DNA of 64,000 nucleotides from an uncultured Chloroflexia bacterium (lineage in GTDB: Bacteria > Chloroflexota > Anaerolineae > Anaerolineales > UBA4823): assembly GCA_963829555.1 (NCBI GenBank), contig CAWHJB010000011.1, positions 68,857 through 132,856 of the forward strand, written 5' to 3'. Of this stretch, positions 896 through 52,583 are shown piece after piece. The notes beneath the pieces are model-generated. The model ran no database searches and was not told the origin of the DNA. It saw only the letters and a list, made by a program, of their open reading frames with translations. Within the stretch, counting starts at the first letter, position 1. Each line of letters starts with the position of its first letter. A program made the position numbers and the translations under genes.

Positions 896-2110
896 TTAGC
901 CTGCAAACCGGGCCTGGCGGCGCATGAAAGCGGGGATGTCCAGGTTCTGTTTCATAGCAGCCAGGTCAGACCCATTTGATGTCAATCCCGTGATGCTTCG
1001 GATCTTAGGTTGAGCAGGTTCTTTCTGGACGGCAGGTGCTTCGGTGATGAGTGGCTCATGGGGAGGTGCGGGCGGCAGGTCCTCTTTCTGGACGGGTTTA
1101 TTGACATTGGACATCGCTTCTTCCAGGGTTGGAGCGCCTAACCCGGTCATTACCAGGATAACCTGAACCCGGTCATCCATGCGGTCGTCGTTGATCACGC
1201 CCATTACGATTTCGGCCTGGTTGCCGGTTTGGGTCTGAATGTAGTTGAGGGATTCATAGACTTCGTTCAGGGTCAGATCCTGCCCACCGGTGAAGTTGAC
1301 GATCACGCCGGCAGCATTTTCAACCGGCACGTTATCCAGCAGCGGGTGATGGAGAGCCTGTTCGACGGCTTCGCGGGCTTTATTTTTACCCTGGCCATGC
1401 CCGATCGACATCAACGCGCCGCCGCCAAGCTGGATCAGCCTGCGAATGTGGGCAAAATCGACATTGATCATTCCAGGTTGGGTAATCAGTTCCGAGATCC
1501 CTTCCACCGATTGCCGCAGCACGTCATCGGCCAGGCAGAAGGCTGTTTCTAAAGTCAGCGTCTTTGGAGCCACATATAAAAGCTGATCGTTGGGAATAGA
1601 GATCAGGGTGTTGGTTTCTTTGCGGAGCCGCTCGAGACCTTCACGGGCGTTTTTCTGGCGGCGGCCCATTTCAAATGAGAATGGCGTCGTGACGATGGCG
1701 ATCGTGACAGCCCCGAGGGAACGGGCGATCTTTGCTGCAACTGGGATCGATCCGGTACCGGTGCCCCCGCCCATACCGGCCGTCAGAAAAACCATGTCAG
1801 CGCCTTTAAGCGCGGCTGCAATCTCGCGCCAGCTCTCTTCTGCCGCCGCTTTGCCCACAGCCGGATCACCACCTGCCCCTAATCCGCGGGTAACTTTTGG
1901 ACCGAGCTGGATTTTGACGTCCGCCGGGTTGGATTTGAGAGCCTGATGATCCGTATTGGCAGCAATAAATTCCATTCCGCGTAAGCCCAGCTCCATCATA
2001 CGGGCGACAGCATTGCTACCCCCACCACCCAGACCGAGAACTTTCAGCACCGGCTGGTGCATCTGATTAGATGGGGATTCAGGTCGTGCGGCGTTAGGAA
2101 ATTGGGACAT
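896..2110 (-). CDS. ftsZ: cell division protein FtsZ
   Basis: From ORF 896..2200. Start set at ATG 2108-2110 (MSQFPN...) behind the SD AGGAGAGG. Motifs: VLGLGGGGSNAV, the tubulin signature GMGGGTGTG, and the C-terminal DIPAFMRRQ peptide. Confidence 0.97.
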   Translation of the reverse strand: MSQFPNAARPESPSNQMHQPVLKVLGLGGGGSNAVARMMELGLRGMEFIAANTDHQALKSNPADVKIQLGPKVTRGLGAGGDPAVGKAAAEESWREIAAALKGADMVFLTAGMGGGTGTGSIPVAAKIARSLGAVTIAIVTTPFSFEMGRRQKNAREGLERLRKETNTLISIPNDQLLYVAPKTLTLETAFCLADDVLRQSVEGISELITQPGMINVDFAHIRRLIQLGGGALMSIGHGQGKNKAREAVEQALHHPLLDNVPVENAAGVIVNFTGGQDLTLNEVYESLNYIQTQTGNQAEIVMGVINDDRMDDRVQVILVMTGLGAPTLEEAMSNVNKPVQKEDLPPAPPHEPLITEAPAVQKEPAQPKIRSITGLTSNGSDLAAMKQNLDIPAFMRRQARFAG

Positions 2111-2138: not shown

Positions 2139-3548
2139 TTATAAGTTATCCAATTGTGATGCAATACTCGTGCCATCTCCGCTGATCCGCTCGACTGCAC
2201 AGCCAGCGGCGCCTAATTTTAAGATAGTCTCATCATTGAAGATCAGCGGGTCTCCAATTACGGTCACTTTTTCAGCCAGTTTGGCTTCTTCCAGCGAATA
2301 GCCGATTGTGGGATGATACTTTCTTACAAAGTTGCGGATGATATCGAGATGCCATTCTGCAATACCCCATTCATACAACGGCAGCAGTAAATAATGACTG
2401 ATCGGATGTGGCTGGAGGGCTGCTGCGTCTTCAGCTGGTGAAGGTGTGATTGCCCCTTTGGATGCCCAGACCCGGGAGGGCGCCAGGCGTTTGGGCTGCT
2501 GAGCGACCCATTGACGAAAAGACGCAACCACCGGCAGGGTCGCGCCGTCCGCCTGATACCAGGCCTGAGATGCATGAGGGCTGTCTGCTTCTGATCCCAG
2601 TAACCAGAAATTGCATGCCAGAACTTCTGCGGGCACGGGTTCCAACTTCTCAACCTCAAATGGAGAGGCTTTTCCGGCTTGATTGGCCGGATTGGATTGG
2701 GCGCCATTGGCGCGCATTGCCTGGGCAATCTGTAAGTTTCGGGACATATGCGCAGCCCGGTCAACCGGCGGTAAGTCCTGCTCCGATTGGGCCCCCAGGG
2801 CGCTGCCGGCTTCCATCAGGATAATCGGCAAAGTTTGACCCAATTCAGCCTGTGCCAGCGTCAGATACCAGTCGAATATCCTCAAGCCGCGCTGATCCTG
2901 AGATCCGGTCGGGGTTGTGTAAGGACGTGCCCCCGGCCAGCGTTCCGGGCCGCCTGCGCCCCAGTTTAGCGGCCGGTTGCCGGCCCTGGCGTAAGCGCTT
3001 AATACCAGGCGATCGAGCAGTTCCGCCGAGCTCCGGCGCTTCATATTGTTGAGAGTAGCCCGCAAAAAGGCTGTGTCCCAATAATCTCCACCTGGCTCAA
3101 GGGGTGGGAGCACCGGGTACAGGCCGCTGGCGACCAGGCGGTCAGCCAGTGGAAGATAAATATCCAGAAACCGTTCGACCAGATCGCTTTGAGCCCAACT
3201 GGAAGCCGGCCAGGCACTGCGGGTATTGGGACGATCAAACAGGATTGCATAATGCACGCCCCAGCGGTTATAATTCTCGAACAGCAACTGTAAATTTTCC
3301 TGATCTAATTCTTTGTCCAACGGCAAACGGAAGTGTACAATCGGCTCGATCTGGGCGCCAAGTAATCCCTGAATAAACGGTTCAGGGATGGCTCGCTCAC
3401 TTGGAGCCTGGAGAACTATCCAGCTGGCGCCCATGGCCTGCAATTCTGGCAGCCAGGTATGTAGATCGCTCTCCCGGTAATGGTACGTATCAGGGAAATA
3501 ATGAAAGCCGATCCGGGTATTTTTGAGCGGGGAGGGTGTCAGTCGCAT
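2139..3548 (-). CDS. conserved hypothetical protein, possibly a TIM-barrel glycosidase-like fold
   Basis: Long ORF 2139..3557. In-frame ATG 3546-3548 (MRLTPS...) is preferred over TTG 3557. Coding-like composition throughout. The fold suggestion is weak and rests on the pattern of hydrophobic strands (WIVLQAP, ILMEAGS). Confidence 0.6.
   Translation of the reverse strand: MRLTPSPLKNTRIGFHYFPDTYHYRESDLHTWLPELQAMGASWIVLQAPSERAIPEPFIQGLLGAQIEPIVHFRLPLDKELDQENLQLLFENYNRWGVHYAILFDRPNTRSAWPASSWAQSDLVERFLDIYLPLADRLVASGLYPVLPPLEPGGDYWDTAFLRATLNNMKRRSSAELLDRLVLSAYARAGNRPLNWGAGGPERWPGARPYTTPTGSQDQRGLRIFDWYLTLAQAELGQTLPIILMEAGSALGAQSEQDLPPVDRAAHMSRNLQIAQAMRANGAQSNPANQAGKASPFEVEKLEPVPAEVLACNFWLLGSEADSPHASQAWYQADGATLPVVASFRQWVAQQPKRLAPSRVWASKGAITPSPAEDAAALQPHPISHYLLLPLYEWGIAEWHLDIIRNFVRKYHPTIGYSLEEAKLAEKVTVIGDPLIFNDETILKLGAAGCAVERISGDGTSIASQLDNL
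2160..2175 (-). promoter_or_regulatory. sigma-54 -24/-12 promoter candidate upstream of ftsZ
   Basis: The minus strand reads GA-TGGCAC-GAGTA-TTGCA-TC, an exact TGGCAC-N5-TTGCA. The -12 element lies 50 nt upstream of the ftsZ ATG, inside the last codons of the upstream gene. Confidence 0.7.
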
Positions 3549-3648
3549 GTTTTTCAATCCTGGTTATCTGGGATAAATAATAAGGGTTACCTTGAGGTAA
3601 GTTAATCGCACAAGAATTGCCCGAATTATGTTAAATTGCCATAAAAGA

Positions 3649-3664
3649 TGCAAGAGATGTGCCA
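3649..3664 (-). promoter_or_regulatory. sigma-54 -24/-12 promoter candidate upstream of gene 2139..3548
   Basis: The minus strand reads CG-TGGCAC-ATCTC-TTGCA-TC (exact consensus). It is intergenic, about 100 nt upstream of ATG 3548. Confidence 0.7.
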
Positions 3665-3808
3665 CGGGCCAATTAGATTAAGGTATAATGAGTTTTGAAA
3701 TCAAGCAGGCGAGTGGTGCACCTGCTAACCGGGTTGCTATCCTCTTTGGTGCAATTATCTTGCCAGGTGGGTGATCGATGAAATCAGGGAAGAGAAAATC
3801 ATACAATC

Positions 3809-5258
3809 ATGCGTAGCGCCGCCAAGTCTCTTTCTTTACTCTTCTTGATCAGCGTCTTTATTGCTGCCTGCAGTCCGCTCGATGATTCCCACATTCCCCT
3901 ACGCACCCTTCCGGTAACGAAATATCAGGTAGATCCTTCTTTCCGTGAAATTTATGATTTTTATGGCGGGCGGGGCATTTTTGGTGAACCGATTACCCAG
4001 ATTCTGGAAAAAGGGAACCAAAAATTTCAATTTACCGTTTCTGGGCTGTGGGTATTCGACCAGAATGCCCCCGCCAACCAGAAAGTTCGCCTGGCTCCGC
4101 TTGGCGCATTGATGATCGATCCCGAACAACCTGTATCCCCACCGGAAGATCCCAACCAGTATTACGTCGACGGTCACATCATTTATGATGAGTTTGTCCA
4201 ACTTTATCGCCGGGTTGGTGGCGCGGCATTTGTTGGCAAGCCCCTGACAGAAGTGCGCTACAACTCGGAACGCGATCGATACGAACAATTCTTTGAGAAC
4301 CTGGGCTTTTTTATCGATCGCCAGGATGGCTCAGAAGCCCATTTGTTAGCCTATGGATTGTGGCTGTGTGATGATAAATGCCGGGCGTCTACCCCGGTTA
4401 ACGGCATCATCGATCATGTCCATCAGGTAAAACCCCCATTTTCACAGGTTGTCGAGAAGTGGGGGGCAAGTTTTACCGGCGACCCGCTCACCGATGCTTA
4501 CCCGAATGCCGATGGCAAACTGATCCAGGTGTTTGGGAATATGGTCTTGGTGGCAGATCCGATCGATCCCACCAATCCGGACCTGGTTTCGACCTTACCG
4601 GTCCTGCAGATCATCGGTCACGTACCCGATCCTCTCCAGCCGGCTACGGATAACCCCTTGTTGTATTTTTACCCAATTGAAGGTGACCGCGGCTATAACA
4701 TCCCCCTGGTGTATGTCGGTTACCTGGATTCTCGCGGCGGTTTCAAGACCTCCGGGCCGCCGCTCGATGAATTGACTCGCATCGATGACGATCTGTGGCG
4801 GCAGTGTTTTACAAATCTATGCCTTGATTTTGAACCCAACGCACCCGAACTCGCTGCAGATACGGCCTGCTCCTGTTGGCGTCGATTACTTAAATTTAAG
4901 CGCCCAGCCTTCACCGACGGCGGCGCCAGAAACCGGTCCTCAAAACCAGGTGACCGTCCAGATCTGGCAGAGTTTCCCGCAGGTCTCTTCAGGCCAGCAG
5001 CAGGAGATCTGGGTCTATGTGATGGAAAATGAAGAACCGCTTCCGGGAATCACGCCCGACCTGATCCTGACTTTCCCGGATGGCAGCCAGCAGCAGTTCG
5101 CTTTTCCACCGACCGGCCCCGATGGCCAGACCCACCTGCTGCTTCCGCCGATCACGGCTTCGAATGGGACCTTAATTCCCTACCAGGTATGTCTGCCCAC
5201 CTCGGCGAATGAGCGCTTCTGTAACCTGAAAGATTACCTGATTCTCAATTCACCTTGA
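3809..5258 (+). pseudogene. secreted lipoprotein of unknown function, reading frame interrupted once
   Basis: ORFs 3809..5032 and 4785..5258 overlap in different frames, and both look coding on their respective sides of about 4850-4880. The N-terminus has a signal peptide plus lipobox (LISVFIAAC). A single 1-nt indel would join them. Confidence 0.6.
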
Positions 5259-5296
5259 TACCCGGTAAACTGGGTTTGAGTTGAAAAAAGTTAGGC

Positions 5297-5374: not shown

Positions 5375-6538
5375 TTAGATCATCTCGGCCGGCAGGTTTG
5401 GAAGGTCAAGGTACAACTCGTCGCAAAACAGCATTGCCCGTTCGATCACATTGCGGAGCTCGCGAATATTGCCAGGCCAGTTGTGCCTGATCAAGGCTTC
5501 CATCGCCCGGGGGGTGACATCCTGAATGTTGAGGCCCATCGCGGGGTTCAGCTTGCGAATGAACAGGCCCACCAGGTCGGGGATATCCTCTTTACGCACT
5601 CGCAGGGGGGGCAGATCCAGATCGACCACCTTCAGACGGTAATAAAGGTCTTCCCGGAATTTACCTTCCTTCATCAAGGCTTGCAAGTCCCGGTTCGAGG
5701 CCGCCAGTATCTGAACGTCCACTTTGATCAGGTTGGTTCCGCCAACCCGCCGGAAAGCGCGCTCTTCCAGGGCCCGCAGCAATTTCGCCTGCATATCGAC
5801 CGGCATGGAAGAAATCTCGTCCAGGAACAGGATCCCGCCATCGGCCACTTCCATCAAGCCGGGCTTGCGTTTTTCCGCTCCCGTAAAAGCTCCCGCTTCG
5901 TAACCGAATAATTCGGATTCCATCACGGTGCTTTGCATGGCGGCGCAATTGATGGCAATGTAGGGTTTATTGTTGCGCGGCCCAAAACGGTGGATCGCGC
6001 TCGCCAATACTTCTTTCCCGGTGCCGGTTTCTCCGGTGATCAGAACGGAGACCGAGGCGCTGGCGGCCCTTTGGGCCTGTTCGATGACTGACTTCATGCG
6101 TGGGCTTTTTCCAATAATGAAATCAAGTTCTCCCTGCCGGGTGCTACGCAAATGGGCCAGCTCTCGTCTCAGCGCGACAGTTTCAGCTGCCCGTTGGATT
6201 GATTTTTCTAATTGCGCCAGCCGGATGGGTTTTTGCAGGAAATCCTGGGCGCCGTTTTTCATGGCGTCGACGGCCATATCGATATCGCCATAAGCGGTGA
6301 TCAGGATGATCGGTGGGCGGGCGGGCAGATGTGCAGTTTCCTCTAACAGGACCGGTCCATAGCCATCCGGTAGTTGCACATCCAACAGGATAATATCCGC
6401 TTCCCCGCGCTGCAGGCAGGTGCGAGCATCCTCCAGGGTGGCGACGCCATTAATCTCATAGCCGCGGGAGGTGAGAAATGTGCCGATATTCTGGCGGGCA
6501 TTATCTTCGTCATCAACAATTAATACTGTAGCGCTCAT
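5375..6538 (-). CDS. sigma-54-dependent response regulator (REC + AAA+), no C-terminal HTH
   Basis: Receiver domain (VLIVDDED...ILLDVQLPDG). AAA+ domain with Walker A GETGTGKE, the GAFTGA loop (EAGAFTGAEKR) and WPGNIRELRNVIERA. The protein ends 18 aa after that motif (387 aa), so there is no room for a Fis-type HTH. Confidence 0.92.
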   Translation of the reverse strand: MSATVLIVDDEDNARQNIGTFLTSRGYEINGVATLEDARTCLQRGEADIILLDVQLPDGYGPVLLEETAHLPARPPIILITAYGDIDMAVDAMKNGAQDFLQKPIRLAQLEKSIQRAAETVALRRELAHLRSTRQGELDFIIGKSPRMKSVIEQAQRAASASVSVLITGETGTGKEVLASAIHRFGPRNNKPYIAINCAAMQSTVMESELFGYEAGAFTGAEKRKPGLMEVADGGILFLDEISSMPVDMQAKLLRALEERAFRRVGGTNLIKVDVQILAASNRDLQALMKEGKFREDLYYRLKVVDLDLPPLRVRKEDIPDLVGLFIRKLNPAMGLNIQDVTPRAMEALIRHNWPGNIRELRNVIERAMLFCDELYLDLPNLPAEMI

Positions 6539-6615: not shown

Positions 6616-6668
6616 CCAGATTTGGGGGCGTGAGCGTGCTGATGCACGCTCGCGCCCCCAAATCTTGG
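6616..6668. repeat. palindromic element, family B copy 1 (core)
   Basis: CCAGATTTGGGGGCGTGAGCGTGC-TGAT-GCACGCTCGCGCCCCCAAATCTTGG. It sits between the kinase stop and the response-regulator start. Confidence 0.95.
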
Positions 6669-6718: not shown

Positions 6719-8741
6719 TTAACCTGCCGCTTCCTGGGCGGGAATTTCAACTGTAAACACGGTCCCACCCGGGAAGCTTTCAACCTGGATCCGGCCTTTA
6801 TGGGCTGTGATAATTCGTTTTGCGATCGGCAATCCCAGCCCCGTGCCGTCATGTTTGGTCGTATAAAATGGCTGGAATATTTTGTCCAGATTTTCTTTGG
6901 CGATACCTGGTCCCGTGTCAGCGATGCTGATTTTAACATAGGTTAAACCATGCGGGTAAGCGGCCTTATTCAATTTGACGACTAACTGGCCTCCGCTGCC
7001 GCGCATTGCCTGAACCGCATTGGTGATCAGGTTATTAAACACCTGCTCCAGCACCTTGGGGCTGCCCTCAACTTTGGGCAGGTTATCATCTGCCTGGATC
7101 CGGTATTGGACATTTTCTTTCACGATTCTGGGTTTCAAACGGTCGAGAAGCGATTCGAGCAGCCGTTTAAGATCGATGCTTTCCATATCGTATTCAGCGG
7201 TCCGGGCGAACGAGAGGACTTGCCGCATCTGGTCGGTGAGCCGGTCGCAATCGGTCTGGAGGCGCATGACCACTTCATGATTAGGATCAGGCTCTGGGAT
7301 GGTCATCTCTAAAAGCTGCAGGCCGGTGCTGATATTGTTGATTGGATTACGGACTTCGTGAGCAAAGACAGCCGTGAATTCCCCCAGAAAGGCCTGTTGC
7401 TCCAGCTGGCGGGTCCTGTCCTGATACTGTTCTTGCTCGGTCAGGTCTTCGAATTGAATAATGATGGCGGTCACCTGATCGCCGATCATGACGGGCATCG
7501 TGCGGAGTTGGGCCAGGAATGCCTCACCATTGCGGCGATAGAGCTGGAGCTTACCGACGTCGTAGGTCGGGCGGCCCTGTTGGGCAACTTGCAGGGCAGT
7601 TGAAAGCTCGCCTTTGCCGATGATCACATTTTCAATTGGGATCCCAACAACTTCACGGCTGGTATACCCAAGAGTCATTTCAGCGGACGGGTTGATTTTT
7701 GTGATGATGAGTTCCGGTGTTGTGATTAACAATCCGTCTTTGACCGAATTTACAGCCGTAGAATAAACCGCCAGTTCATTGGTATTCGCCTTTAACCTGG
7801 CTTCCAGGTTGTTCAGCAGGTCGTGTTGGCGGGTCAGGGTTGTGATCGCCGCGGCGATCAACTGTGCCAATCGCAGGATAAAGGGATTGGGCTGCTTTTC
7901 GGCTTCACCGATGACGATAAACCCGTCGATCTCGGGTAATCCGGTAGGCGCGGTGGCAATGAAGCTGTATTCCTTGGAGCGGGCGGTGCGATGCAGAACG
8001 GAGGTCATGCGTTTCCCTGCCGTCCAGAGCTGAGTCGAACGCATATTCACCAATTCTTGGGGGGGAAGCGATTCGGGTAAAACCGTGCCATCGCCGACGA
8101 AAACCTTGCGTTTCAAGTAACTCTCGGCCAGTGGTCGAACCAAATTGCCCCGATGTTTCTTCGTCGCTCATCGCTTCCAGGCGATAGTATCCGATAGCGC
8201 TGGCTTTGGTGAGATCGTGTGCCGCCTGGATCGCCCTGGATAAGGCTGTTTTATCCTCAGTCTCATTGATTGCGGCAGCCATCTGGTACAGATTTTGCCA
8301 GATTTGATCTTGAAACTGCAAATCAGCCAGCGGAAGCGTTTGTATTCTGGTTGGTTCGAATTGAACCAGTTCGAATCGATCGGACTGCCCGAGCGTATTG
8401 CGGTTAATTTGAACGGCAAGTTTGCTCCCGTTACGTTTGATCAACATGCCCTTGCTTGCATCTTGAACGCCGGGAACATCATCGGGGGAGGTGGATGGTT
8501 CTTCTGTTCCCGGGTGGGAGCGTCCAGTGAACAGTTCGTTAAATTTGAGCTGACATAATTCAGCCCGGGTATAGCTGGTCAGTGCAGCGACCCTGGTATT
8601 TGCAAAAAGAACCTGACCATTGTTCTTATCGATCAGGATCGATGCGGCCGGGAGAAGTTCGACAAGTGCCTCGATCTCCGCATGGGTTGGCCTGGTTTTA
8701 CGTCCGGGATTAAAGAAAGAGAGGGGCGATGGAGGTTTCAT
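6719..8741 (-). pseudogene. PAS/GAF sensor histidine kinase, frame interrupted once
   Basis: ORF 7905..8741 covers the N-terminal PAS region. ORF 6719..8143 covers PAS, HisKA (FAHEVRNP) and HATPase (DTGPGI...GTGLGL). The two frames meet near 8144-8167, next to the C4 run at 8148-8151. Confidence 0.85.
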
Positions 8742-8743
8742 TA

Positions 8744-10147
8744 TTATGGATGGGCTGCTCTTAATCTCGCTGGTAAGATCCCCTCCATTGTACGATATTT
8801 TGCGACAGTTCGGCGAGCAACCGGGTAACCTCTTTCACCCAGTATTTTCGCAATTTGGGTATCACTCAAAGGTTTGCGTTCTTTATCAACAATTTCGCGC
8901 AGGGCGGTGCGAACGTGCAGGCTGCGATCGAAGAGTTTCGAGATGGAGATAATCCGGCCGTTGGGGAGTTGGAGGGCTTTTCCTGACACTGCCCGCGAAA
9001 CGGTCAATTCGTGTACGCTCAGCTCTTCAGCAATTTTTGCCCTGGTTACCGGGATCAGGTGCGCGTCCCCTTTTAATAGAAAACGCCGCTGTAAAACGAC
9101 CATTCGGGCCATTAATCGCACCAGGGTGTGATTGCGCTGCTGTAAACACTTGACCAGGAGATTGGCTTGTTCAATATCTGCCTGCCATTGTTCGGCTTTA
9201 TCAGCTGGGGCGTCAGGCAATGCTTCCCGGAAAAGCGGGTTCACGCGCAGCCTCCCGGCATAAGGGGAAATGATTTCGACAACCAGCGGCGAGTCTGGCT
9301 TGTCGTTCAATCGTGAAACCAACACATCCGGGGTCTGGTAAACCGTGCGCGGCGCCGTGCTGTGGCGTTGATCGCCCCAGTGGGCACGAGCAGGATAGGG
9401 ATTCAGATTTTCGCTGATGAAGCGCGACAAATTCTGAGCCTGCTTGGTGGAGATTTTTAGCCTTCTCCCCAGCTCCATATAAGCGTGCCGGGAGAGTAGA
9501 TCCATGCAGGTGAGGATCGCTTCGGCTGCCAGGTGAGGCACCTGGTGATTTTCGGCCAACACATCCAGTTGAACCAATAAGGCTTGCTGAGGGCTCCGGG
9601 AACCAACGCCAACCGGCTCGGCCCGTTGGATTAACTGGAGAACGCTTTCCACTCGCGACAAGCGGACATGATGATACATTGCGATCTCAGCAATTTCGAT
9701 GGGCAGCAATCCGTCATCATCCAGGCTGGTGAGAATGTGGGCAGCTAATGGACGGTCTTCGGGCGCCAATTCAGCCGAGATCTGGCGCAGGATGAAGGAA
9801 GGCAGATCTTCAACTGCCGCGGCCCATTCTTCGTCGGGCATGTCCTCGCCCGAGCGCGTGCCAGAATAATTCCGGAAATCGTCGCGCGGCGAAATGAATA
9901 CGATCGGCTCCTCTGGTTCGGTTTTTGCTGGCTTACTGCAAACCGGGCAAGGGCCCTTTTCAGGCAATTTGCGATTACAATTTGGGCATGTGCGGGTTTC
10001 GATCAATTCCAGGGCCGGGTTGGAGGCCAGGTCTGCTTCGATCTTTTGACCCAGTTCAGCGGAGGTCAGTTCAAGCAGTGTCATGGTCTGAGCCAGATGA
10101 GCGGTGGTCATCGGCCGGAGTGCTTGGGATTGCGTTTGGATAATCAT
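8744..10147 (-). CDS. rpoN: RNA polymerase sigma-54 factor
   Basis: From ORF 8744..10195. Start set at ATG 10145-10147 (MIIQTQSQAL...) behind the SD GGGAGTA. It has a Gln/Leu-rich region I and the RpoN box ARRTVAKYR near the C-terminus. It also carries an unusual CPNC-X9-CPVC insertion. Confidence 0.95.
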   Translation of the reverse strand: MIIQTQSQALRPMTTAHLAQTMTLLELTSAELGQKIEADLASNPALELIETRTCPNCNRKLPEKGPCPVCSKPAKTEPEEPIVFISPRDDFRNYSGTRSGEDMPDEEWAAAVEDLPSFILRQISAELAPEDRPLAAHILTSLDDDGLLPIEIAEIAMYHHVRLSRVESVLQLIQRAEPVGVGSRSPQQALLVQLDVLAENHQVPHLAAEAILTCMDLLSRHAYMELGRRLKISTKQAQNLSRFISENLNPYPARAHWGDQRHSTAPRTVYQTPDVLVSRLNDKPDSPLVVEIISPYAGRLRVNPLFREALPDAPADKAEQWQADIEQANLLVKCLQQRNHTLVRLMARMVVLQRRFLLKGDAHLIPVTRAKIAEELSVHELTVSRAVSGKALQLPNGRIISISKLFDRSLHVRTALREIVDKERKPLSDTQIAKILGERGYPVARRTVAKYRTMEGILPARLRAAHP

Positions 10148-10183
10148 ATTTACTCCCTGCTTACTTGGTTCTATTATACCTGT

Positions 10184-10199
10184 TGCAAGAAGCATGCCA
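10184..10199 (-). promoter_or_regulatory. sigma-54 -24/-12 promoter candidate upstream of rpoN
   Basis: The minus strand reads G-TGGCAT-GCTTC-TTGCA-ACA. The -12 element is 37 nt upstream of the rpoN ATG 10147. Confidence 0.6.
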
Positions 10200-10265
10200 C
10201 ATTAATATTTCGGGGGGGCTTTAGGAGATCCTGCAGCCGAGGCTATATGTGGGGGTAATTTTCTG

Positions 10266-10326: not shown

Positions 10327-10374
10327 TTTGGAGTTCAATTTGTGCGGTCTCAGCTGCACAAATTGAACTCCAAA
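10327..10374. repeat. long perfect palindrome (singleton in this window)
   Basis: TTTGGAGTTCAATTTGTGC-(10 nt)-GCACAAATTGAACTCCAAA, in the divergent rpoN/proline-dehydrogenase intergenic region. Confidence 0.9.
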
Positions 10375-10492
10375 AATAATTTTCTACTACATCTTCGTGC
10401 ACCCCGGGTTTATGCTACAATTCAGGTTATCCGGTGCTGTGGTCCTTGTGGAGAAGCTCAGGCTTTTACCGAGGAACCATAACCATTCAATT

Positions 10493-10543: not shown

Positions 10544-10632
10544 TATTCAATCTGTCAATCGGATTCGATCCGATACATATGCTTCATGACTAAATGGTTC
10601 TTTCGCTAAATACCTTTAGGAAAAAGAGCAAA

Positions 10633-10681
10633 TGTAATGTTCATTTTTATGCGGCGTCGCCGCACAAAAATGAACATTACA
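10633..10681. repeat. long palindrome (singleton)
   Basis: TGTAATGTTCATTTTTATGCGGCG-TC-GCCGCACAAAAATGAACATTACA, with one mismatch. Confidence 0.9.
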
Positions 10682-10796
10682 ATCACTTTTCAAAGAAAAA
10701 GGACTTAGCGAGAAAATCACGAAAAGGGTTCATTCGGAAACTGTGTGAGACACCACCCGATGAATTCCCAGAGATCTTCTGAAAGGTTGCACAAAA

Positions 10797-11759
10797 ATGC
10801 TTCGTTCTTTGTTAATCTACCTTTCGAAAGCAAGTTGGGCGCGCAGAATGGTCACTCACTGGTCATTTGCCTGGCGCGCGGCTTCCCGATTTGTCGCTGG
10901 TGAGAAGCTTACAGACGCTATCGAGGCCATTCGTATCCTCAACTTGAAGGGGATTGATGCGACGCTTGACCATTTGGGGGAAAATACGACGACTGTGGAC
11001 GGCGCTAACCAGGCAACCGCAGATATCCTGGAAGCGCTCGATGCAATCCACTCATCTGGGGTCAGAGCCAATGTTTCAATTAAATTGACTCAGATTGGTT
11101 TGAAATTAGATCGAGGGCTCTGTGCTCAAAATCTGAAAAAGATTCTGTTACACGCCGGAGAACTGAATAATTTCATTCGAATCGATATGGAAGATTCTCC
11201 TTTCGTGGATGATACCCTGGATTTGTTTTACACCATGCGGGATCAGGAGAGTTTGCTCAATACCGGGGTCGTCATCCAGGCATATCTTTATCGCAGCGAG
11301 AAGGATATTTTGAAAATTGTTGGCGCCCGCGGCCGGGTTAGGTTATGCAAAGGGGCCTATCAAGAACCGCCCGAGGTGGCATACCCCAAGAAAAGCGATG
11401 TCGACAGGAACTATGACCATTTGGCCGAGATGCTTTTGGATGGGGCGGTAGCTGCCGGCGCGCCTGCACTCTCGCCGGATGGCAAAATACCGCCGCTGCC
11501 GGGCATCGCCAGTCACGATCCAGCCAGATTGGCGCATGCCAAGGCTTATGCCCAACAAATTAAACTGCCCAAGCAATCTTTGGAATTCCAGATGCTGCAT
11601 GGGATCCGGCGAGATTTGCAGGAACAGTTGGTAAATGAGGGTTACCCTGTACGAGTTTACGTACCCTATGGCACGGAATGGTACCCTTATTTTGTGCGCC
11701 GCCTGGCAGAGCGGCCGGCCAACCTGTGGTTTTTCATCAGCAATTTCTTTCGAAAGTAA
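10797..11759 (+). CDS. proline dehydrogenase family protein
   Basis: 320 aa with motifs typical of monofunctional PutA-like proline dehydrogenases: ...ATLDHLGE..., IRIDMEDS, QAYLYRSE, RLCKGAY. Confidence 0.8.
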   Translation: MLRSLLIYLSKASWARRMVTHWSFAWRAASRFVAGEKLTDAIEAIRILNLKGIDATLDHLGENTTTVDGANQATADILEALDAIHSSGVRANVSIKLTQIGLKLDRGLCAQNLKKILLHAGELNNFIRIDMEDSPFVDDTLDLFYTMRDQESLLNTGVVIQAYLYRSEKDILKIVGARGRVRLCKGAYQEPPEVAYPKKSDVDRNYDHLAEMLLDGAVAAGAPALSPDGKIPPLPGIASHDPARLAHAKAYAQQIKLPKQSLEFQMLHGIRRDLQEQLVNEGYPVRVYVPYGTEWYPYFVRRLAERPANLWFFISNFFRK

Positions 11760-43500: not shown

Positions 43501-44052
43501 TCAGGCTACCACGCGGTGGGCAAACGCGACCACATCCCGTTTCGCCAGCGCCATCGGTACCCGGATGACTCCCATCGCAGGGATTGCTGGCTGGCTGATC
43601 GCGACTTCGTAGATCATGGTGTAGCGTTCGGAAGTAACATCCAGGTAGCGTTCAAGGTTGGTCTGGTTGGACATTCGCAGGGTACCATCAAACCGGAAAC
43701 TGCCGACCAGCGCGGTGATTGGTTCCATTTTTCGGTTGGGCTCATCAGGATCATAATCCAGGGGTTCGCGATCCGGGGGTTTGATGTGAAACGCGAACAC
43801 CTGCGGCGTGGGAATGTGCAATTCGGCATAACTGTATGGCTTGATCGGCCCTGCGCCACCAAGGGTGATCACCTGGGCCTGCCGCAGGGTGATATATTGG
43901 GGGGCCATGGCGGTACGCAGCCAGACACTGACTTTGATCGCCTCCCTGGTGTACAGGTCTCCCCAAACCATCGTATTGAGTGTATAGATCATCACGGGGG
44001 TTAGCTTTTCCCCGGCGGCTGGTCCAGTAGAAGTGCTGGGGATTTGATCCAT
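43501..44052 (-). CDS. hypothetical protein (183 aa) behind a sigma-54-type promoter
   Basis: From ORF 43501..44253. Start set at ATG 44050-44052 (MDQIPST...), which has the SD AAAGGAG 8 nt upstream. The longer ORF would include the promoter motif (44166-44181) and a repeat element. No family recognised. Confidence 0.6.
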   Translation of the reverse strand: MDQIPSTSTGPAAGEKLTPVMIYTLNTMVWGDLYTREAIKVSVWLRTAMAPQYITLRQAQVITLGGAGPIKPYSYAELHIPTPQVFAFHIKPPDREPLDYDPDEPNRKMEPITALVGSFRFDGTLRMSNQTNLERYLDVTSERYTMIYEVAISQPAIPAMGVIRVPMALAKRDVVAFAHRVVA

Positions 44053-44165
44053 GTCCACGGCTCCTTTCGCAAGCGGGTGCAAGGTTTCAACTGAGAAGCT
44101 CAACTTGACGGAGGTCCAGGCGCCTGCCGGGTTGAGCTGAGTCTCTTCAATCTTGGTGTTTACAT

Positions 44166-44181
44166 TGCAACCGTCGTGCCA
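44166..44181 (-). promoter_or_regulatory. sigma-54 -24/-12 promoter candidate upstream of hypothetical gene 43501..44052
   Basis: The minus strand reads CC-TGGCAC-GACGG-TTGCA-AT (exact consensus). It lies 114 nt upstream of ATG 44052. Confidence 0.7.
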
Positions 44182-44248
44182 GGGACCATTCCACGGAGTT
44201 TCCAAAGACTCTTTCCTGATTCTCTGGGAAATTCTGTGGGAGGGTACC
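44182..44248. repeat. inverted pair of ~30-nt units directly upstream of the sigma-54 promoter candidate at 44166-44181
   Basis: GGGACCATTCCACGGAGTTTCCAAAGACTC ... TCTCTGGGAAATTCTGTGGGAGGGTACC. Confidence 0.75.
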
Positions 44249-44402
44249 ACCACAGAAATACCGATAGATTCCCTTTCCTGAACGGCTGCATGAACGGTTA
44301 AGAGATTATAATGAGCCTGGTCAAAATTTGGATAAATTCCTCAAATCGGGAACTATCCATCATGATACCAGACAGGTTATCAATCTTATTTCGGAGAACA
44401 AC

Positions 44403-50277: not shown

Positions 50278-52464
50278 TTAATTAGAGGAGGAATGAACTT
50301 CTTCGCCGGGACGATAGGAACGCTCAAGATTTGCTTCGATCATTGAACGGTCCATCCAGGCCGGCTTGAGTTGATGGGCAGCGAACAGGGGCGATTGATC
50401 GGCGTAGTGAGGGGAGTCAGAATCGAGCGTCGCGCTGCCATACTGGTGAATGCTGAAAGCCTGCAGTTCTCCGTTTCGATCCCATTTTGCGAGTAATACA
50501 TACAAATCGCCGGTGTATCCGATCAGGCGGCCGTCTTCCGCCAGATGACCATAAACAGCTCGCAGGATATCCGGGCCCCCGTCCAGCCCAATATCGACCG
50601 AACCACGTACCAACCGGTTCGCTTCGCTCCAGGGGACATCGATGGTGCCGTATTTTTGCCGGATCAGTTTAACGGCTTCGGTCAGAGAGTTCAACAAGGC
50701 TTTATCGGGGATCATTGTATTGACCATTGCCGAGGCGTTAATGGGCAGATCATTTTCCAACATGCGAACCAGGGTGAAAACCCAGATCGTTGCAGCCGGG
50801 CTATCGGCCGACATACGCAGGTCCCAGCTGGTCAGCAGATCGAGGGCGTGTTGGAGATCGGGATCATCCGGTATCTTCATGTGGGAAAGATGTTCGATGA
50901 AATGAGGCGGATCGGAAAATCTGGAGTAGCTGTTATCGAACTTATATCCGATGAATTCCTCAAAGCCAATCGATGGGTCACCTCCAAACAGTTCCAGGGC
51001 CCTTAAGGCGCGGTTGCTCATATTCTTTTCAATGCCCAGAGTCTCCGAGTACTGGTTGGGATCCGGGTTCCAGGGATCCAGGGTTGTCTGGAAGGGAGTG
51101 CTGTTTGCGTTTTGAACGAATCCAGAGGGGGGATTAAGCACCTGGGGCAGCGCATCGAACGGCAGGGTCTCCGTCCAGAGCGTCTCCGAGGTGTTCCCCG
51201 GCAGGTAAAGCGACCAATCGTAGCCTTCCTGACGGATAGGCAGCAAAGCATTGTAAACATAATAAATATTGCCATCCCGATCTGCATAACCGACATTGAA
51301 GCTTGGCAGACCGCCATCACTCAGGGCGTCTCGCCACTCTTCAAAATTTGTGGCTTTATTCATCCGGTACAGCTGTTGAAAAATATCCACCCGTCCGTAA
51401 CCGGCATACCTCAGTGCATATGTCCCGTGTTTCTGGCGCACGACCGGACCGTAGACAGACCAGTAGACCTTTTCTTTGACCGTCCAGGTTAACCGACCCA
51501 ACAGCTTAACCTTGATGGGGGCATCGCGTTCTTCCAGGGTTAACCAATCGCCATCGAACTGGTAGCGTTTGGGCTGGTAATAATCTGTTTCCAGGACATA
51601 AACGTCGGTCAGGTCGGGATGATTGACTGTGAAAGCCCAGCCCAGGTTACGGTTGGCGCCGTGAATAATGACCGGTGTGGCGGGAAAAGTTGCCCCGGTC
51701 ATATCCCAGCCGGTCTCGCTGTGGACGTGGGCTTCATACCAGGTGGTGGGCCCTTCCCAGGGCTGATGCGAGTTGACCGCCAGAAAGGTTGACCCGTCTT
51801 CACTCCGCCCGGGACCGATGCTAAAGGTGTTGGAACCGAAGCGTTCATCCACGTTGAACAACCCACTGGTTGGAGAGGGGGATAATTCGCTCTGGCGGCT
51901 GTCGGCAAACAATTCGGCCAGGGTATCGTCCAGACCGAAGAAAAGCGGTGATTTATGGATCGAGGCAGCCGCCAGGTCGCGGCCGGTGACCGGGTAGAGG
52001 CCGGCTGTCAGCACTTCTTTGGGATGCAGGGCGGCATAAACATTGACCCCATCCGCATACGCTTCCAACAAGGCCCGCGTGTCCGGCGTCAAATCCCGCT
52101 CGTAAGTCTCGGCGACCACATCCCAGATCCGTAGAAGCTGGACCATGTAATCGTTCGGGGCGGCATCTTTACCATAGACGCTGGCAAGCTGCCCGCGGGC
52201 AGCCAGGAGGGTTTGTTGGATGGTGAGAAAATCATCCTCGGCGTGCGCATATGCCAGACCATAAGCCGCATCCGCGTCCGTCTGTCCAAAAATATGTGGT
52301 ACCCCCCAGGTGTCCCGTAAGATTTCGACTTGATAAGCTTCACCGCGCTGAGCCAGGTCCGATAAATCGACGCGTTCCGGGCTCAAAATGAACACGATGG
52401 CTGCAACGCAGACCACGATCAAGACGAAACCGATGCGTTTTATCAGTGAGAGGTAGTTTTTCAT
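50278..52464 (-). CDS. penicillin/acyl-homoserine-lactone acylase family (Ntn hydrolase) protein
   Basis: From ORF 50278..52557, with the start at ATG 52462-52464 (MKNYLSL..., TM/signal anchor). Candidate Ser nucleophile context GSNTFSIG. Size and domain order are typical of the penicillin amidase family. Confidence 0.8.
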   Translation of the reverse strand: MKNYLSLIKRIGFVLIVVCVAAIVFILSPERVDLSDLAQRGEAYQVEILRDTWGVPHIFGQTDADAAYGLAYAHAEDDFLTIQQTLLAARGQLASVYGKDAAPNDYMVQLLRIWDVVAETYERDLTPDTRALLEAYADGVNVYAALHPKEVLTAGLYPVTGRDLAAASIHKSPLFFGLDDTLAELFADSRQSELSPSPTSGLFNVDERFGSNTFSIGPGRSEDGSTFLAVNSHQPWEGPTTWYEAHVHSETGWDMTGATFPATPVIIHGANRNLGWAFTVNHPDLTDVYVLETDYYQPKRYQFDGDWLTLEERDAPIKVKLLGRLTWTVKEKVYWSVYGPVVRQKHGTYALRYAGYGRVDIFQQLYRMNKATNFEEWRDALSDGGLPSFNVGYADRDGNIYYVYNALLPIRQEGYDWSLYLPGNTSETLWTETLPFDALPQVLNPPSGFVQNANSTPFQTTLDPWNPDPNQYSETLGIEKNMSNRALRALELFGGDPSIGFEEFIGYKFDNSYSRFSDPPHFIEHLSHMKIPDDPDLQHALDLLTSWDLRMSADSPAATIWVFTLVRMLENDLPINASAMVNTMIPDKALLNSLTEAVKLIRQKYGTIDVPWSEANRLVRGSVDIGLDGGPDILRAVYGHLAEDGRLIGYTGDLYVLLAKWDRNGELQAFSIHQYGSATLDSDSPHYADQSPLFAAHQLKPAWMDRSMIEANLERSYRPGEEVHSSSN

Positions 52465-52567
52465 CGGATAGCTTCCATGTAGCAGTAAGGTTGACTGACA
52501 GGCTGCGGCGACTGATTGCTCTGATAACGGACAGAAGCAATATGAACGTTGATACAATGAAGGTCAT

Positions 52568-52583
52568 TGCAATGCTTATGCCA
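52568..52583 (-). promoter_or_regulatory. sigma-54 -24/-12 promoter candidate upstream of the acylase gene
   Basis: The minus strand reads AC-TGGCAT-AAGCA-TTGCA-AT. It lies 104 nt upstream of ATG 52464. Confidence 0.6.

Follow-up and report, generated by a model that had tools for sequence, protein, structure and literature searches.

How does transcription of a sigma factor gene begin when the promoter in front of it appears to be one that the same sigma factor would serve? The question is raised by a stretch of 64,000 nucleotides from an uncultured Chloroflexia bacterium (hereafter, the window), in which rpoN, the gene for sigma-54, is the first gene of an operon and is preceded by an element of the sigma-54 type. 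Nearly all that is known of sigma-54 biology comes from Proteobacteria, Firmicutes, Chlamydia, and spirochaetes, and we found no studies of sigma-54 in Chloroflexota or Anaerolineae in the literature. An earlier note on this DNA raised the possibility that rpoN is positively autoregulated from a sigma-54-type promoter, and took as its premise that rpoN is usually transcribed by sigma-70 holoenzyme. The premise is a fair one, but exceptions are documented (PMC12316311, PMC6925177, PMC3538637).

The rpoN gene and the element upstream of it

The rpoN gene occupies positions 8744..10147 of the minus strand and encodes a protein of 467 residues with the Pfam domains Sigma54_AID (PF00309), CBD (PF04963), and DBD (PF04552), together with an RpoN box (ARRTVAKYR). 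Residues 14–463 align to the sigma-54 of solved holoenzyme structures in the PDB, and the top protein-database matches include proteins labelled Anaerolineales bacterium. The match to TIGR02395 reaches 252 bits, which is below the 277-bit cutoff, and we therefore regard the protein as a divergent member of the sigma-54 family. Within the 64-kb window we found neither a second rpoN nor a second sigma-54 activator (bEBP).

Two observations concern the protein itself. In this clade, residues 54–70 of RpoN (9938–9988, minus strand), which fall in the variable Region II, contain a CPxC-N9-CPxC motif whose four cysteines are invariant in 26 aligned homologues; the insertion resembles a zinc ribbon and, in alignment, falls opposite the acidic Region II of sigma-54 from Klebsiella. 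In addition, a 363-residue protein (P0006) from a 140-kb ENA contig is 100% identical to the first 77% of RpoN and ends without a DNA-binding domain; it represents a truncated allele or else a frameshift in an assembly of the same organism.

The sigma-54-type −24/−12 element, TGGCATGCTTCTTGCA, lies at 10199..10184 on the minus strand, which is the coding strand of rpoN, with its GG at 10198–10197 and its GC at 10186–10185 (minus-strand context, aatgTGGCATGCTTCTTGCAacaggTATAATagaaccaagtaagcAGGGAGtaaatATG). Its first base is 52 nt, and its 3′ end 37 nt, upstream of the rpoN ATG at 10147, and an AGGGAG Shine-Dalgarno sequence (10158..10153) ends 5 nt before that codon. The element agrees with the sigma-54 consensus TGGCAC-N5-TTGCW at 11 of 12 core positions, and its GG–GC spacing is exactly 10 nt. 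The predicted start of sigma-54-dependent transcription, at ~10172–10173, would give a leader of ~25 nt that contains the AGGGAG. An alternative ATG (10195..10193) falls inside TGGCATGCTTCTTGCA; the earlier note had preferred the start at 10147, and the homologues bear out that choice, in that they begin with MIxQSQS and do not conserve the extra 16 codons of the longer open reading frame. In one relative (L084), the stretch matching these codons even contains a 1-nt gap, and we therefore rejected the start at 10195.

We also considered how often such a sequence would arise by chance. The pattern TGGCA-N6-TTGCW occurs six times in the window, compared with 0.35 occurrences expected (a 17-fold excess), and none of 100 shuffles reached six. 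When ten non-rpoN sites alone (the ftsZ and orf472 promoters described below) are used to train a weight matrix, the rpoN site of the window receives 20.4 bits out of a maximum of 24.1; for shuffles of the rpoN upstream region (150 nt), the 99.9th percentile is 13.8 bits. When the whole window is scanned with a weight matrix, seven sites score at least 12 bits, as opposed to ~1–2 in most of 20 shuffles (range 0–6), and all four of the best (17–24 bits) fall near the rpoN locus, within 2.1–10.2 kb. Chance occurrence of TGGCATGCTTCTTGCA was ruled out by the pattern count and by the matrix score relative to shuffled sequence. Elsewhere in the window are two further sigma-54-like motifs, namely TGGCATAAGCATTGCA (52568–52583, minus strand; 16.8 bits), which precedes the probable start of a 759-residue open reading frame (50278..52557) by ~100 nt, and TGGCACGACGGTTGCA (44166–44181, minus strand; 12.7 bits), near the 5′ end of an open reading frame at 43501..44253.

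For the comparison across relatives, we used 21 orthologous loci, whose RpoN proteins are 37–91% identical to that of the window, and which with the window make 22 sequences. A scan of genome contigs with the single RpoN protein returned one relative, a Chloroflexota MAG, whilst a scan of metagenomes with very conserved peptides gave mostly distant sigma-54 genes, which served as negative controls. As the earlier note had claimed, a sigma-54-type promoter, correctly oriented and spaced, stands ahead of rpoN: an intact GG-N10-GC element (xGGYAY-N5-CTTGCA) is found at the same place in 20 of the 22 loci (RpoN 44–100% identical), at 50–64 nt from the ATG in all of them except L011, where the distance is 111 nt. 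At the same position, L009 has a degenerate TAGCAT-N5-TTGCC. The most distant locus, L015 (RpoN 37% identical), has no intact element upstream of rpoN, and a look-alike there, TGGCCTGAACTTGCA, was excluded from the count because its GG–GC spacing is 9 nt and not 10 nt.

In alignments of the orthologous loci, the flanking DNA diverges around the conserved element. Among the four closest relatives, no more than the last ~62 nt of the intergenic DNA can be aligned. This block (10148..10209, minus strand) comprises the promoter, the short leader, and the AGGGAG, and nothing else in the rpoN-proximal intergenic DNA is strongly conserved. The rpoN upstream regions of the clade score a median of 19.9 bits with the matrix from non-rpoN sites, compared with 1.8 bits at 37 distant rpoN loci, and the exact pattern TGGCA-N6-TTGCW was not found in 36 distant rpoN loci (RpoN 26–32% identical). 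On this evidence, TGGCATGCTTCTTGCA is very probably a genuine binding site for sigma-54 holoenzyme. In two relatives, rpoN is preceded by a tandem pair of sigma-54 elements that stand 17 nt apart: TGGTATAAAACTTGCAT then TGGCACGTTACTTGCA in L005 (~4924–4956), and TGGTACGAAACTTGCAT then TGGCATATTACTTGCA in L006 (~621–653).

A sigma-70-type promoter on the same DNA

A dependence of rpoN on sigma-54 alone is not supported, since a conserved sigma-70-type promoter overlaps TGGCATGCTTCTTGCA. The promoter, GTGGCA-16-TATAAT (10200..10173, minus strand), consists of a −35 hexamer at 10200..10195, a 16-nt spacer, and a −10 TATAAT at 10178..10173. It matches 10 of 12 positions (four of six in the −35 and all six in the −10) of the consensus TTGACA/TATAAT, which is assumed to hold for the Chloroflexota housekeeping sigma, and would start transcription at ~10166, again upstream of the AGGGAG. 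The earlier note had suggested looking for an additional sigma-70 promoter further upstream; the one described here, which is conserved, sits on the motif itself.

Such an overlap is present in 19 of 21 loci, and takes two forms. In geometry A, the −35 coincides with the −24 element (nTGGCA-16/17-TATAAT, with TAGAAT as the −10 in L085); this holds for 13 loci, comprising L004 and every locus whose RpoN is at least 63% identical. In six of the eight more distant loci, it is the −12 element, TTGCAA (TTGCCA in L009), that doubles as the −35 and is followed, after 16–18 nt, by TATAAT or TATACT (geometry B). Only L007 and L013 among the 21 lack an overlapping sigma-70-type promoter. The −10 box moves between the two geometries, and the sigma-54 element is their sole constant, which argues that the 16-mer is not merely sigma-70 promoter sequence.

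The same comparison bears on the idea that GTGGCA-16-TATAAT is an ordinary sigma-70 promoter that drives rpoN by itself, and that the resemblance to a −24/−12 element is incidental. We consider this improbable. The 10 of 12 matches, the perfect −10, and the TATAAT of all near-clade loci are what such a promoter would be expected to show. However, CTTGCAAC would then be mere spacer in the near clade, and the TGGCAC of the far clade would sit upstream of the −35, and yet both halves hold a fixed 11-bp register even though the −10 moves by ~12 nt. Nor would an incidental resemblance be expected to yield the median of 19.9 bits with a matrix from independent sites, or the 17-fold enrichment of a motif that clusters around the rpoN locus.

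As a control, we inspected ten other conserved sigma-54 sites of the lineage (five at ftsZ and five at orf472). An overlapping sigma-70-type promoter occurs at one of them, where it is not conserved, compared with 19 of 21 at rpoN (Fisher p = 2.5e-5, in a test on related sequences that are not independent). By this comparison, the sigma-70-type promoter is retained specifically at rpoN.

The operon and its neighbors

Downstream of TGGCATGCTTCTTGCA, the operon encodes both sigma-54 and at least one bEBP. A gene for a cytoplasmic sensor kinase with the Pfam architecture PAS-PAS-HisKA-HATPase (6719..8741, minus strand) starts 2 nt after the rpoN stop codon, and is followed by a gene for a 387-residue REC + AAA+ sigma-54 activator (5375..6538, minus strand), which has a GAFTGA loop and no C-terminal HTH. 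The Pfam domains of the activator stop at AAA_lid_14, at residue 386 of 387, and its match to NtrC covers profile positions 1–381 of 463, from which we conclude that it has no DNA-binding domain. Its orthologues, of 387–396 residues, have no HTH family listed. A kinase paired with a REC-AAA+ activator that lacks a DNA-binding domain is familiar from Helicobacter, where FlgS/FlgR activate sigma-54 promoters from solution. The CtcB/CtcC pair of Chlamydia trachomatis likewise comprises a sensor kinase and a REC-AAA+ activator that lacks a DNA-binding domain and works on sigma-54 promoters from solution, but chlamydial rpoN has not been reported to share an operon with the pair or to lie under its own promoter, and the level of its transcript was roughly constant (PMC7482065).

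The order rpoN-kinase-activator is kept in every related locus that is long enough to show it, which favors the co-transcription of the activator assumed in the earlier note. However, the gap between kinase and activator is 180 nt and includes a palindromic element in the window, as opposed to 2–125 nt in relatives, and co-transcription is therefore less certain in this genome than in the others. The kinase gene of the window is split over two frames, with the switch near 8100–8149, whereas relatives have a single gene for 652–695 residues (674 in L083). A second split gene lies nearby on the plus strand, where open reading frames 3809..5032 and 4785..5258, divided near ~4821–4849, correspond to a single 482-residue unknown protein in L082. 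Both were judged against 77–80%-identical orthologues with single genes, and two frameshifts within 4 kb suggest assembly indels, the alternative being that both are pseudogenes. If the kinase frameshift is real rather than an assembly error, the signal path to the activator would be defective in this strain.

The intergenic region upstream of rpoN, which the earlier note gave as 650 bp, is indeed 649 nt long in the window, but that length is peculiar to the window, where insertions of palindromic repeats have inflated it; in relatives it measures 107–360 nt. The alignment of relatives contains no conserved upstream block that could be an activator sequence for the bEBP, and L087, in which the whole divergent intergenic region is only 107 nt, offers no room for one. 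The missing enhancer is expected, and is not disqualifying, for an activator without a DNA-binding domain. Three palindromes lie in the rpoN locus (10327–10374, 10595–10719, and 6618–6665). They cannot be considered part of the promoter, given that close relatives lack them and that members of the same repeat families occur at scattered sites across the window. An RNA element in the intergenic region was rejected on similar grounds, as Rfam returned only sub-threshold matches there, to microRNA hairpin models, on two of the palindromes. Altogether, the window contains 35 inverted-repeat pairs, many of them long and GC-rich, that fall into a few sequence families (e.g., AGATTTGGGGGTGTGAGCGTGC... 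and AAAATAAGGCGTCAGCCTGGGC...), with copies at, for example, 20880, 28339, and 54309, and at 5290, 24518, 31965, 50114, and 57195; they look like REP/MITE-type intergenic palindromes or shared terminators. The only other intergenic block conserved in close relatives is an extended −10, TGcTACAAT (10413–10421, plus strand), which probably serves the divergent proline dehydrogenase gene (10797..11759) as its promoter, and which palindrome insertions have shifted to ~375 nt from the ATG of that gene in the window.

Beyond the activator gene, two further genes on the minus strand are preceded by promoters of the same type. The first, orf472 (2139..3557; 472 residues), has no Pfam, NCBIfam, or meaningful PDB sequence match and is preceded by one or two conserved sigma-54-type promoters, TGGCACATCTCTTGCA (3649..3664, minus strand), which is conserved in five of five lineages, and a second sigma-54-like element, TGGCAAGATAATTGCA (3750..3765, minus strand), which is conserved with its flanks in L082. 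It always adjoins the second gene, ftsZ (896..2110, minus strand), a TIGR00065 equivalog at 387 bits against a cutoff of 295 bits. The ftsZ promoter, TGGCACGAGTATTGCA (2160..2175, minus strand), lies 49 nt upstream of the ftsZ ATG at 2110, inside the 3′ end of orf472, and is kept in all five lineages (the window, L013, L082, L090, and L091). In four of the five, the last codons of orf472 contain it, whereas in L013 orf472 is shorter and the motif (10899–10914) is non-coding, 46 nt before the ftsZ ATG, so that coding constraint does not explain its conservation. In that same lineage orf472 directly follows the activator gene, making rpoN-kinase-activator-orf472-ftsZ collinear, and, judged by gene order and promoters, the rpoN cassette seems to be tied to cell division. 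We found no report of a sigma-54-dependent ftsZ in the literature, including a survey of predicted sigma-54 regulons.

These neighbors also help to judge whether TGGCATGCTTCTTGCA might be the site of some other transcription factor, such as a response regulator bound to a direct repeat, TKGCA, one helical turn apart. The halves of the 16-mer do form an imperfect direct repeat 11 bp apart, and sequence alone cannot identify what binds it. Nevertheless, a factor of this kind is very improbable, as it would have to account for agreement with an extended sigma-54 consensus at 11 of 12 core positions and for the presence of the element ahead of other genes in the orientation of their transcription, at a locus which encodes sigma-54 and a DNA-binding-domain-less activator and where no such factor is evident.

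Predicted regulation, precedents, and meaning

Based on the observed sequence elements, their conservation, and the gene and domain content of the locus, we infer the identity of the bound holoenzyme, the sites at which transcription starts, and the direction of regulation. The reading that we favor on balance is that a composite sigma-70/sigma-54 promoter of 28 bp (10200..10173) serves the rpoN-PAS histidine kinase-activator operon. Holoenzyme with the housekeeping sigma-70-type factor would use GTGGCA-16-TATAAT to provide basal amounts of sigma-54, kinase, and activator. This would solve the bootstrap problem, since a sigma factor that needs itself at its sole promoter cannot start. Sigma-54 holoenzyme would then occupy the interleaved TGGCAT-N5-TTGCA as a closed complex, and the cytoplasmic PAS kinase would phosphorylate the REC-AAA+ activator, which would remodel the complex so that transcription starts near 10172–10173. 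Having no DNA-binding domain, the activator should act from solution, without an upstream enhancer. Sigma-54, kinase, and activator would rise together, which amounts to positive autoregulation with feedback on three limiting components, and such feedback suits an activator whose action from solution depends on its concentration. The same activated holoenzyme would be expected to fire the sigma-54 promoters of orf472 and ftsZ. That TGGCATGCTTCTTGCA is a productive promoter through which rpoN is positively autoregulated is, in our estimation, probable.

Since the two promoters lie on common DNA, competition between the sigma-54 closed complex and the housekeeping holoenzyme is also to be expected, and, as long as active activator is lacking, the closed complex probably occludes the sigma-70 promoter and caps the basal level. 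Occlusion might even be the whole of the matter. Under that rival explanation, the sigma-54 element is an operator, and an unproductive closed complex on the sigma-70-type promoter keeps sigma-54 constant by negative autoregulation. The overlap conserved in 19 of 21 loci fits this equally well, as in both geometries the −35 or the spacer comes under the sigma-54 footprint, and negative autoregulation by occlusion would be no less classical: at glmY, the binding of sigma-54 represses the sigma-70 promoter (PMC3045617), as it does overlapping sigma-70 promoters elsewhere (PMC4591121, citing Zafar 2014), whilst negative autoregulation has been reported for rpoN of R. leguminosarum (PMC3538637). 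Competition at sigma-70 promoters by a stable sigma-54 complex is also treated in that review (PMC4591121). The positive autoregulation proposed in the earlier note is therefore plausible, given the activator in the operon, but sequence alone cannot separate it from negative autoregulation by occlusion. On the other hand, the element has the full geometry of a promoter, with consensus −24 and −12 parts on the correct strand, 50–64 nt to the ATG, and a Shine-Dalgarno sequence downstream. Moreover, it is not evident how an active activator that lacks a DNA-binding domain could spare the closed complex at rpoN and yet fire those at orf472 and ftsZ. For this last reason, we rate occlusion by itself below the composite promoter, and think it rather unlikely. 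With a composite promoter, basal transcription, feedback, and occlusion in combination could cap the basal state and amplify the induced one.

Partial parallels exist in better-known systems. The nifU2-rpoN “autoactivated superoperon” of R. capsulatus (Cullen et al. 1994) has a weak constitutive promoter and one activated by NifA-RpoN, as described in PMC6925177, and there, as predicted here, a basal promoter and sigma-54-dependent amplification give positive autoregulation with a bootstrap. In that system the two promoters are separate, the sigma-54 promoter preceding nifU2 and the constitutive one preceding rpoN, and the activator, NifA, uses an upstream activator sequence (UAS) and is encoded elsewhere. 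In the operon of the window, by contrast, the promoters overlap, rpoN comes first, and the kinase and DNA-binding-domain-less activator are part of the same operon. In prxS-rpoN2 of Rhizobium etli and Mesorhizobium loti, rpoN is likewise transcribed from an RpoN-dependent promoter. However, it is a second, symbiosis-specific copy that could be bootstrapped by RpoN1, its expression is NifA/UAS-dependent, it is not the first gene, and no overlapping sigma-70 promoter is described (PMC3538637).

The interleaving of a sigma-54 with a sigma-70 promoter has its counterpart at glmY of E. coli and Salmonella, where the two-component sigma-54 activator system GlrK/GlrR is encoded next door, but the target is a small RNA, and GlrR binds three upstream sites and needs IHF (PMC3045617). 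In E. coli, both glmY transcripts start at the same nucleotide (PMC3045617), whereas the starts predicted here are ~6–7 nt apart in the near clade and ~20 nt apart in the far clade. A survey of predicted sigma-54 promoters found them upstream of rpoN (COG1508) in Bacilli, Clostridia, Planctomycetia, Proteobacteria, and others, and drew from the −24/−12 motif the same inference of autoregulation as we do; it makes no mention of Chloroflexota, of an rpoN-kinase-activator operon, or of an overlapping sigma-70 promoter (PMC12316311). RpoN3/AprX of C. sphaeroides was considered as an analogue and set aside, as the paper is uninformative on rpoN autoregulation. Taken one by one, the ingredients each have a precedent, namely sigma-54-driven rpoN, overlapping promoters (glmY), and enhancer-independent activators (CtcC). 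For the combination of an rpoN-first operon with a kinase, a DNA-binding-domain-less activator, and a fused dual promoter, we found no description in the literature.

The locus offers a compact and widely conserved test case for the bootstrapping of a sigma factor that is unable to initiate alone. It also bears on the targets of an enhancer-independent activator and on the generality of sigma-54/sigma-70 promoter overlap, a question which the authors of the glmY study left open (PMC3045617). As a tentative and more far-reaching possibility, the cassette may be self-contained, with the fused promoter acting as a two-state switch (low by occlusion, high by positive feedback) whose targets include ftsZ and orf472, such that sigma-54 might gate division or septation in filamentous Anaerolineales-like Chloroflexota. 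The linked, conserved sigma-54-type promoters of ftsZ suggest, in any event, an unexpected output for this system: cell division.
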